Shown here in pieces: positions 5,880 through 8,800 of a stretch of DNA of 64,000 nt. The DNA is from Escherichia coli (GTDB lineage Bacteria > Pseudomonadota > Gammaproteobacteria > Enterobacterales > Enterobacteriaceae), in assembly GCF_030013595.1 (NCBI RefSeq), contig NZ_CP122768.1. One strand, written 5' to 3'. Numbering within the stretch: position 1 is the first letter of the stretch; the number at the start of each line of letters is the position of its first letter. The position numbers were made by a program.

Positions 5880-8800
5880 TAATTCCAGGGATTTATAAAT
5901 GAAACAAACACAACGTCACAACGGTATTATCGAACTGGTTAAACAGCAAGGTTATGTCAGTACCGAGGAACTGGTGGAGCACTTCTCCGTCAGCCCGCAG
6001 ACTATTCGTCGTGACCTCAATGAGCTGGCAGAGCAAAACCTGATCCTGCGGCATCATGGCGGCGCGGCGCTGCCTTCCAGTTCGGTTAACACCCCGTGGC
6101 ACGATCGCAAGGCCACCCAGACTGAAGAAAAAGAGCGCATCGCCCGCAAAGTGGCGGAGCAAATCCCCAACGGCTCGACGCTGTTTATCGATATCGGCAC
6201 CACCCCGGAAGCGGTGGCGCACGCGCTGCTTAATCACAGCAATTTGCGCATTGTCACCAACAATCTCAACGTCGCTAACACGTTGATGGTAAAAGAAGAT
6301 TTTCGCATTATTCTCGCCGGTGGCGAATTACGTAGCCGCGATGGTGGGATCATAGGCGAAGCGACGCTCGATTTTATCTCCCAGTTCCGCCTTGATTTCG
6401 GCATTCTGGGGATTAGTGGCATCGATAGCGACGGCTCGCTGCTGGAGTTCGATTACCACGAAGTTCGCACCAAACGCGCCATTATTGAGAACTCGCGCCA
6501 CGTTATGCTGGTTGTCGATCACTCGAAATTTGGCCGTAACGCGATGGTCAATATGGGCAGTATCAGCATGGTAGATGCCGTCTACACCGACGTCCCGCCG
6601 CCAGTAAGCGTGATGCAGGTGCTGACGGACCATCATATTCAACTGGAGCTGTGCTGATCCTGCACGGCTTCCCACGTCAGACCAAAACGCGCCAGGTATT
6701 TGCGTAGCCGATCCGCGTCATTGACGCTGGCTTTGCCCTGGCGCGAAACATCAAAAAGCTGTCGTCCGGCAGCAGAAAGCGACTTTGCCTGGCGGCAGAT
6801 AGCGATAACGTGTTCCAGTTGCATACGGTCGAAGAGATCGATGTTTTCTGCCTCTGCGCCCAGCAGCTGCGTAAGCGCGGAGGGACGGCTCTCCTGCCAG
6901 TTATAGCGCAGACGGTTTATCTCATCTTCAACCACGTCCAGAGTGATGCGTCCGCTAGTGGCAAAGGTTGCCATCCGCGTGACGCTGGCAGAAAGTTCGC
7001 GAAAGTTACCGCGCCATGTTGCCTGGGGAGAGGTCGCAAAAGCCAGCCAGGCGCGCCGTGCTTCGGTGTTAAAACGCACGCTGTCGCCGGTGAGTGAGGC
7101 GTGGCGCTCCACTTCATAATCCAGGTTAGGTTCAATATCTTCCTGGCGCTGGCGTAGCCCTGGCAGGATGAAGGTCCAGAGATTGAGCCGCGCGTACAGG
7201 TCTTCGCGAAATTTGCCTTCGGCAACCAGCTGGCGCAAATCGCGCACCGTTCCGGCGATAAGCTGAAAATCACTACTCACCTGGCGATCGCTGCCAAACG
7301 GGTAAAAGGTTTTCTCTTCAATGGCTTTCAGCAACATCGCCTGTTCGTCTGCGCCCAGTTCGCCAATCTCATCAAGAAATAACATCCCGCCGTTGGCGCT
7401 GCGTAATAATCCTTCCCGCGACTCCCGCGCCCCGGTAAACGCGCCTTTCACATGACCAAACAGCGTCGACATGGCGGTATCACCACGCAGGGTGGCGCAG
7501 TTCACTTCTACAAATGCGCCGCTAAACTGATGCCGTGCCTGTTTTAATTCAAAGATGCGTCGCGCCAGAAATGACTTACCCGCACCGGTCGGGCCGTTAA
7601 GCAGGATCGGTGCGCGGGATTTGATCGCCACTTTTTCGATCTGCTCAATCATGCGGTTGAAGTGGGGGTTGCGTGTGGCAATGCCGGATTTGAGGAAATC
7701 GAGGGTTTGCTGGCGTTCCTCGGCAAAGCGGCTGGCGATGGCGTTATAACGGCTTAAATCGAGATCGATAATCGTCACTTCACCTGCGCCGCGTGGTTGT
7801 TCTTTTTTGCGCGGTGGTGAAGATTGTATCAGCCGGGCGGGCAGGTAACGCGCTTCTGCCAGCAGAAACCAGCAAATCTGCGCGACGTGGGTACCGGTGG
7901 TGATGTGAATTAAATAGTCTTCTTTTTCTGGCTGGAACGCGTAACCACGGGCGAAATCATGCAGGCAGGCGTAAACCTCTTCGAAATCCCACGGGTTATG
8001 CAGTTCTATCTCAACGCCCACCACTTCTGTTTCTGGCGAAACGCTGGCGATATCGCGTTTAAGCGTTTCGAATAGCGAGCGCGAGCGGGCGTCGTGCAAT
8101 AATTCCAGCCGATCGATAACTAACGATTCTTGCTGGCATAGACAGAGTGTCGGACGCCATTTTGACCAGCGCTGACTGCCGCGCCCGGCATAATCCAGCA
8201 CCGTTCCGACAAAACCAAAAGCCACTGTTTTACGCATCTTAGATATCCTTATAAAAGACGATATTTCATTATCGGTAAATTGGCTTTGCGGGAAATCTCC
8301 GTTTACGGACGTAAAAATTTAATCTATTAAAAACAATGAATTAAAAAATTAAGCTGCTTAATTAATTTTCTGGCACGACGGTTGCAATTATCAGGACAGC
8401 AAACAACGAAAAGAGAAAAACAAAATGAATTACGAATTACTGACCACTGAAAATGCCCCGGTAAAAATGTGGACCAAAGGCGTGCCGGTAGAGGCCGATG
8501 CGCGTCAGCAACTTATTAATACGGCGAAGATGCCGTTTATTTTCAAACATATTGCGGTAATGCCGGATGTACACCTGGGTAAAGGTTCCACCATTGGTAG
8601 CGTGATCCCAACCAAAGGGGCGATTATTCCGGCGGCGGTGGGCGTGGATATCGGTTGTGGAATGAACGCGCTGCGTACCGCGTTAACGGCGGCAGACCTG
8701 CCGGAAAACCTGGCGGAACTGCGTCAGGCGATTGAAACAGCCGTGCCGCACGGGCGTACTACCGGACGTTGTAAACGTGATAAAGGCGCATGGGAAAATC

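Follow-up and report, generated by a model that had tools for sequence, protein, structure and literature searches.

Convergent genes that share their 3′ ends form a described class of gene arrangement in Escherichia coli, where 663 overlapping adjacent gene pairs have been counted, 75 of them convergent (PMC4161906). In these pairs two real genes on opposite strands run into each other, and a model of stop-codon mutation fits the phases of the overlaps (PMC2174442). Other convergent systems are also known. In mscL-arfA (PMC10070815) and in the excludons (PMC12288877), coding sequences and untranslated regions (UTRs) overlap at their 3′ ends, the transcripts are mutually antisense, and the double-stranded RNA (dsRNA) is cut by RNase III; for mscL-arfA, the regulatory effect and its dependence on RNase III have been demonstrated experimentally. 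In the bidirectional terminators of Ju et al. 2019, as they are summarized in a preprint (bioRxiv 10.1101/2022.10.23.513370), a stem-loop lies near the junction of a convergent pair within an intergenic gap and yields uniform 3′ ends independently of Rho. Here we analyze the junction of glpR and rtcR in a 64,000-nt stretch of E. coli DNA (RefSeq assembly GCF_030013595.1, contig NZ_CP122768.1), which is referred to as the window. The two genes end within each other by 19 bp. Very probably this is an ordinary convergent overlap between two real genes, which came about because the rtc locus is packed very closely against the end of the glpEGR operon.

The overlap is already known, since public annotations include it, and it belongs to a well-described type; a literature search for discussion of this particular overlap found no paper. 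The pair is one of the about 75 convergent pairs of E. coli, and nothing essential separates it from the known type. Like other such pairs (PMC2174442, PMC4161906), it consists of real opposite-strand genes sharing their 3′ ends in phase (123:213), with states of 4 and 19 bp that are separated by one stop loss and an extension to the next in-frame stop. Its particular trait is that the loss of the rtcR stop appears to arise through a stop-to-stop change in glpR that is silent for GlpR.

The overlap and its partners

The open reading frame (ORF) list and the raw sequence agree on a convergent 3′-end overlap of 19 bp, TCAACTGGAGCTGTGCTGA, at the same coordinates as a preliminary description of the window had given (6639–6657). 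That description had allowed for a revision of the stop positions. None is found, as both stops are set by the sequence and leave annotators no choice. The rtcR stop straddles two glpR codons, taking the final base of ATT (I247) together with the first two of CAA (Q248). Read on the + strand, the shared stretch comprises the third base of I247, codons 248–252 (Q-L-E-L-C) and the stop of glpR; read on the − strand, it comprises the third base of D527, codons 528–532 (Q-H-S-S-S) and the stop of rtcR. Both partners are genuine coding genes on opposite strands, and their 3′ ends, stop codons included, share nucleotides. The third codon positions of glpR and rtcR lie opposite each other, which is phase (123:213) in the notation of Lillo and Krakauer (PMC2174442), and silent change therefore stays possible in both genes. 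In Escherichia species and Klebsiella oxytoca, substitutions within the 19 bp are confined to 6642, 6645 and 6648 and are all silent in both genes; around the overlap, K. oxytoca departs at 12 of the 22 bases compared. A 4-bp stop/stop overlap falls in the same phase because 19 = 4 + 15. With TGA rather than TAA or TAG as the glpR stop, the opposite strand reads CAG, codon Q528 of RtcR, and contains no stop at that position. The features of the junction are collected in Table 1.

Table 1. Features at and around the glpR/rtcR junction, in window coordinates.
Feature	Position	Strand	Basis
glpR coding sequence, 252 aa	5899–6657	+	ORF list; Pfam HTH_DeoR, DeoRC
RNase III-generated perfect RNA duplex in glpR	6190–6212	both	PMC7373196 Table S3; located with 1 mismatch
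115-codon open frame antisense to glpR, codon-on-codon phase	6328–6675	−	ORF list
rtcR coding sequence, 532 aa, sigma-54 activator of the rtcBA RNA-repair operon	6639–8237	−	ORF list; Pfam
Shared stretch TCAACTGGAGCTGTGCTGA, 19 bp	6639–6657	both	sequence and translations
rtcR stop codon TGA, appearing as tca on the + strand	6639–6641	−	sequence and translations
RtcR codons 527–532 (DQHSSS), nonconserved C-terminal tail	6642–6659	−	27-sequence alignment, tblastn
10-bp RNA hairpin with the glpR stop in its loop, no U-tract after it	6645–6671	+	single-sequence fold
glpR stop codon TGA, preceded by TGC	6655–6657	+	sequence
Probable 3′ untranslated part of the glpEGR transcript, antisense through rtcR codons ~416–527	6658–6991	+	PMC7815308

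The gene names used in the preliminary description are borne out by Pfam domains and by identity with K-12. GlpR carries HTH_DeoR (2.4e-26) and DeoRC (9.3e-56, residues 74–231), and 201 of its 252 residues align with K-12 glpR at 99.5% identity. RtcR carries the RtcR domain (CARF-type; 1.3e-85), Sigma54_activat (4.6e-51) and AAA-lid, and is 98.7% identical to the K-12 protein. Homologues of RtcR number in the thousands, and the orthologues of GlpR and RtcR sit in syntenic loci. The same overlap is annotated by RefSeq in the nearest public strain (2100–2858 versus 2840–4438) and in K-12 MG1655 (rtcR 3558268..3559866; glpR 3559848..3560605). The glpR of MG1655 is a pseudogene with a frameshift at codon 51, whereas that of the window is intact.

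Once the two genes abut, the length of 19 bp is unremarkable. In a null model, an abutting convergent ORF in the same phase gives a median overlap of 34 bp and an overlap of at least 19 bp in 68% of cases (38 long window ORFs). The missing spacer is the less common event. Among the nine convergent pairs of this stretch only the present one overlaps, and the other gaps measure 45–219 bp in the annotation of the nearest public strain; the envZ-pckA gap of the window itself is larger than in that strain because what looks like an IS200 copy sits inside it.

Stop-codon change and the length of the overlap

Junctions were read from ten further lineages by a scan of reference genomes and by look-ups of the encoding contigs. 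In Escherichia species, E. albertii, E. whittamii and Klebsiella oxytoca, glpR ends in TGA, RtcR ends in ...QHSSS and the overlap is 19 bp. The same ...QHSSS tail closes the RtcR proteins of Enterobacter and Phytobacter (protein level only, their DNA junctions not having been read). Two junctions overlap by 4 bp. In the Salmonella allele linked to rsr, glpR ends in TGT TAA and RtcR in ...LQN (overlap TTAA), and in Superficieibacter electus glpR ends in TGT TAG and RtcR in ...KEMAN (overlap TTAG). Two others are longer, both with TGA as the glpR stop: Intestinirhabdus alba, with RtcR ending in ...ISTAPAEYGDR, overlaps by 35 bp, and a second Salmonella allele (RtcR of 536 aa), ending in ...ISTIPAVYGGRR, by 38 bp. 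These two share a 7-nt deletion just past the conserved tryptophan motif, which shifts the phase and so results in the overlap of 35–38 bp.

Two forms of the rtc locus thus adjoin glpR in Salmonella enterica. One has rsr (Ro60-like, TROVE/vWA) between rtcR and rtcB and the 4-bp junction; the other is without rsr and has the 536-aa RtcR and the 38-bp junction.

A gap-free alignment of the two junctions from E. coli and Salmonella sets RtcR codon 528 of E. coli, CAG, opposite the TAA stop of Salmonella. For rtcR to stop at the 4-bp position in this phase, the glpR stop has to start with TA, since TGA reads CAN on the opposite strand. TGA in glpR hence removes the opposite-strand stop, and RtcR becomes 5 codons longer, with an overlap of 19 instead of 4 bp. 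A change between TAA or TAG and TGA is silent for GlpR, and RtcR therefore switches between 527 and 532 residues. This rule of stop type fits all 11 junctions. The change corresponds to the route of stop-codon mutation, which fits the phases of E. coli convergent overlaps (PMC2174442).

The arrangement can be accounted for as follows. The rtcR and glpR genes abut exactly, and the rtcR frame continues across the antisense of the final glpR codons up to the first stop. The run-on adds to RtcR a six-residue tail, DQHSSS, that is not found in homologues elsewhere. A TAA or TAG stop in glpR sets the rtcR stop TAA opposite and gives 4 bp; with TGA that stop is lost and 19 bp result. No space is left for an intergenic terminator, and none is present. 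In this strain, as published data show for K-12, transcription of the glpR strand would enter rtcR in antisense, to be stopped by Rho a few hundred nucleotides on.

The junction in E. coli genomes

A 59-nt probe centered on the overlap is found in 5420 of 5426 complete E. coli genomes, and a 701-nt probe spanning the junction matches 5425 of them, being 100% identical in strain HCP5S3_I2. The 19-bp overlap occurs in every allele sampled, including those of about 93% identity. Nevertheless, the rtcR body (7100–8200) is missing from 568 of the 5426 genomes. Within the rtc locus, E. coli strains show at least three distinct internal deletions, equivalent to window positions 6732–10531, 7023–10254 and about 7155–10530. 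They leave 3′ stubs of rtcR (about 93, 399 and 525 bp) beside an intact glpR, and 3′ stubs of rtcA beside malT. In about a tenth of E. coli, therefore, the overlap partner of glpR is a dead stub.

A larger loss is seen in E. coli NCTC11023, where a deletion of ~9.8 kb, equivalent to window 6364–16179, has removed 294 bp from the 3′ end of glpR together with the whole rtc locus, malT and most of malP, so that remnants of glpR and malP are fused.

The 115-codon frame antisense to glpR was considered as a gene and rejected as a shadow ORF; it belongs to no Pfam family. A frameshift close to the 3′ end takes rare alleles of rtcR into this frame, and the products are 636 aa long (P0001 and P0007). 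P0007 represents 14 NCBI sequences and P0001 comes from one read-archive assembly; these alleles may be decayed alleles or sequencing errors.

Where transcription ends

The local gene order is glpD, glpE-glpG-glpR, rtcR on the opposite strand, rtcB-rtcA and malT. The glpEGR operon, in which glpR comes third, is served by several promoters, two of them within glpG (Yang and Larson 1998, as cited in PMC5442614). The preliminary description had argued that any terminator must lie within coding sequence; this follows from the geometry and matches the lack of a convincing terminator at the junction. It had also held that the read-through transcripts would be mutually antisense. For the glpR strand this is upheld by a published Rho termination region inside rtcR; for the rtcR strand the claim rests on the geometry and on dsRNA over glpR.

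Rho termination region 3559514 (−) of K-12 lies antisense to rtcR (Adams et al. 2021, PMC7815308 supplementary file 2). Coverage upstream and downstream of it is 154 and 29 in untreated cells, and 153 and 256 with bicyclomycin (Rho score 8.9, p = 2.7e-27; PMC7815308). The data come from MG1655, at a resolution of 800-nt windows. The site is 334 nt past the glpR stop, at about 6991 of the window, with coordinates transferred without indels. In K-12, then, transcripts of the glpR strand cross the last ~110 rtcR codons in antisense and are ended by Rho, and the same is to be expected in this strain. Bicyclomycin-sensitive loss of coverage inside rtcR is the trait that the locus shares with Rho-dependent termination of 3′ UTRs and antisense RNAs (PMC7815308; Peters et al. 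2012, as cited there). Rho requires more than 50 nt of untranslated RNA, and 51.5% of its termination regions are antisense to genes (PMC7815308); the former fits termination well beyond the glpR stop. Transcripts of rtcR would likewise enter glpR and end there, probably also through Rho.

Antisense pairing

Duplex RNA has been recovered over glpR. RNase III-cut dsRNA was captured there at 94.6 reads per million (RPM) in exponential and 49.0 RPM in stationary phase (Huang et al. 2020, PMC7373196). The duplex mapped inside glpR (Table 1) implies that antisense RNA extends at least 445 nt into the gene from its 3′ end. The capture shows a duplex, not that rtcR supplies the antisense strand.

These data could be taken for a coupling of the excludon kind, in which the long, Rho-limited 3′ UTR of glpEGR and the read-through of rtcR form a deliberate antisense pair, and transcriptional interference or RNase III cleavage couples expression of the GlpR repressor with that of the RtcR activator. 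Such a coupling would draw on the glpR-strand RNA, which is antisense over ~330 nt of rtcR and reaches much further when Rho is inhibited, on the captured dsRNA with its defined duplex, and on the precedent of mscL-arfA (PMC10070815). The convergent abutment is also kept in Escherichia, Salmonella, Klebsiella, Intestinirhabdus and Superficieibacter. However, the GlpR protein stands at 0.95-fold, not significantly changed, in the RNase III null mutant rnc-14 (PMC7373196 proteomics, in which RtcR was not quantified), and dsRNA over glpR is not distinctive because 87% of genes give some (PMC7373196). The length and phase of the overlap differ among the relatives (4, 19, 35 and 38 bp), and the rtcR body is lost in ~10% of complete E. 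coli genomes. Synonymous divergence of rtcR codons 424–526, which lie under the glpR 3′ UTR, is not reduced, and the profiles of synonymous sites along rtcR and glpR reveal no added constraint under the presumed 3′ UTR of the partner. Judged by this divergence and by a weak consensus structure, the overlapping RNA is not conserved beyond its coding need. The locus thus departs from mscL-arfA in the unchanged GlpR of the RNase III mutant, in having no conserved RNA element, and in an overlap length that varies by genus. No functional link is known to join glycerol metabolism to RNA repair, and this too counts against the coupling, which we regard as quite unlikely. The sense/antisense pairing seems to be a by-product that is tolerated, not a means of control.

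A related proposal is that the glpEGR 3′ UTR, reaching ~330 nt into rtcR, is a brake on RtcR that is sensitive to Rho and to translation, and that the stubs left by rtc deletions keep the glpEGR terminator. We hold this to be very unlikely. If it were true, stresses that weaken Rho or uncouple translation would also alter the amount of RtcR, and the rtcR stubs of 93–525 bp would be retained for the glpEGR terminator, which shields malT from antisense read-through. Stresses of this kind are among those reported to induce rtcBA. A new question would be opened only if an antisense effect on rtcR proves real.

RNA structure at the junction

Alternatively, the polymerases could be halted at the junction itself, by collision or by the hairpin at 6645–6671 acting as a bidirectional terminator, close to the two stops and with minimal antisense overlap. 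The glpR strand does carry this 10-bp hairpin, and bidirectional terminators that are neither intrinsic nor Rho-dependent are reported to be common at E. coli convergent pairs (bioRxiv 10.1101/2022.10.23.513370). Nonetheless, the hairpin is flanked by neither a U-tract nor an A-tract, as an intrinsic or bidirectional terminator would have. On the rtcR strand, where the fold at the junction is ordinary (z = −0.87), A-C mismatches take the place of its two G-U pairs, and the hairpin is absent in the relatives. Termination on the glpR strand is sensitive to bicyclomycin and occurs ~334 nt downstream. No Term-seq 3′ ends are given for glpR or rtcR in PMC7815308 supplementary files 1 and 3. In addition, both genes are weakly expressed, and termination efficiency is lower at lowly expressed convergent pairs (bioRxiv 10.1101/2022.10.23.513370). 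Set beside the terminators of Ju et al. 2019 as summarized in that preprint, the glpR/rtcR junction shares a convergent pair with a stem-loop nearby and differs in having neither a gap nor a mapped 3′ end at the junction and in that termination is Rho-dependent. A terminator at the junction is therefore highly implausible.

Searches for signals gave little at this place. In a promoter and terminator scan, the 7 sites resembling terminators are no excess over what shuffled sequences yield (4.3 ± 2.1), and none falls at the junction. Weak terminator candidates on the rtcR strand, 6286–6266 and 6145–6133, were set aside. No inverted repeat was found in 6500–6800. Rfam 15 gave no match in 5800–8500 at E ≤ 1 and, in the scan of the whole window, none near the junction at the gathering score. 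In a consensus fold of 10 relatives (−12.4 kcal/mol, covariation term −0.42) the E. coli hairpins disappear and covariation is almost absent, and a conserved RNA element at the junction was rejected on these grounds.

A second long stem lies on the + strand at ~6688–6745, in the region of rtcR that codes for the helix-turn-helix, and is without covariation support in relatives.

The constrained partner and the RtcR tail

Within the overlap, GlpR is the constrained partner. In every relative examined GlpR has 252 aa and ends in QLELC. For RtcR, 27 sequences were aligned, from Enterobacteriaceae, Pseudomonas, Neisseriales, Verrucomicrobia, Desulfobacterota and others. Conservation in the C-terminal DNA-binding region extends through ...RLRKYLxxFxLxWxxV/I-x, which ends at about E. 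coli residue 526. Beyond the shared ...L-x-W-x-x-(V/I/L)-x the proteins carry unrelated tails of 0–10 residues, and tblastn matches of distant homologues end at residue 525–527. Since the conserved part is followed by unrelated tails, DQHSSS is a nonconserved tail. The last conserved codon, ~526, occupies 6660–6662 and thus lies 2–3 nt outside the glpR stop.

One could still suppose that the RtcR tail is functional and that the overlap is a selected case of dual coding. The ...(D/N/H)QHSSS tail is identical in proteins of four genera (Escherichia, Klebsiella, Enterobacter and Phytobacter), across which the rest of RtcR is only 79–84% identical, and the six overlapped codons show zero nonsynonymous changes. 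However, Salmonella and S. electus, whose rtcR leaves those nucleotides unused, conserve them just as well, retaining CAA CTG GAG CTG TG. for GlpR, and glpR alone therefore accounts for the conservation. Homologues of RtcR elsewhere have 0–10 unrelated residues past the core, and natural alleles end in ...LQN, ...KEMAN and ...ISTAPAEYGDR. Selected dual coding is accordingly extremely improbable. An annotation artefact as the cause of the overlap is ruled out by the unambiguous stops and by the presence of the junction in 5420 genomes.

Points weighing against an ordinary overlap

Some observations count against the view that the junction is an ordinary overlap of tightly packed genes. The missing spacer is conserved across several genera of Enterobacteriaceae; this could hint at selection, or may equally reflect inherited synteny. 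In the junction alignments a stop-codon change links the 4- and 19-bp states, either of which may be ancestral. The RNA of the + strand at 6600–6760 folds markedly more stably than shuffles, at −64.1 kcal/mol with z = −3.8. The evidence on termination has its own weak points. Over the 78 nt that follow the glpR stop the C/G ratio is 1.30, and at +195 to +338 it is 1.05–1.11, against a window 90th percentile of 1.53; downstream of either stop it is only weakly rut-like and below the 90th–95th percentile of the window, and profiles of C/G skew single out a rut site on neither strand. The glpR strand differs from the described Rho terminators in that its RNA is only weakly C-rich. The Rho data are from MG1655, whose frameshifted glpR could allow Rho to load sooner than in a strain with an intact gene, and care is needed in transferring MG1655 transcript-end data to the intact glpR of the window. 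As for rtcR transcripts, no 3′-end data were found in the literature, and the SMRT-Cappable-seq supplements mention neither glpR nor rtcR.

Implications

The overlap matters for the design of knock-outs. A clean deletion of the whole ORF of glpR or rtcR strips the partner of its last codons, and a full rtcR deletion costs GlpR residues 248–252 and the stop. Keio-style deletions retain the last 21 nt and so just avoid hitting the partner gene. In transcriptomes, antisense coverage over the 3′ third of rtcR is to be read as Rho-limited read-through of glpEGR, not as a new antisense gene. The junction can also serve as a teaching example, where a stop-to-stop change in glpR (TAA or TAG versus TGA), silent in that gene, sets RtcR at 527 or 532 aa.

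Other features of the window

The convergent intergenic region of envZ and pckA contains a segment of ~705 bp (32132–32836) that the nearest public genome lacks. The segment codes for an IS200-type Y1 transposase (Pfam Y1_Tnp, 7.9e-37), and Rfam STnc490 matches within it at 32703–32826 (−) with 146 bits. The segment looks like an IS200 copy inserted in the spacer of two convergent genes. Past it, annotation coordinates of NZ_CM149870.1 are shifted by +709. The gntT gene (18577–19893, −, 438 aa) and a fimbrial chaperone ORF (532–1335, +) are intact in the window and are annotated as frameshifted in this near-identical record; the frameshifts could be true strain differences or assembly errors in NZ_CM149870.1. 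Rfam also gives a match to the small RNA ES036 (CssrF) at 2858–2900 (+), with 43.6 bits against a gathering score of 37.6; the site is flanked by the fimbrial gene cluster and by the 3′ end of glpD.

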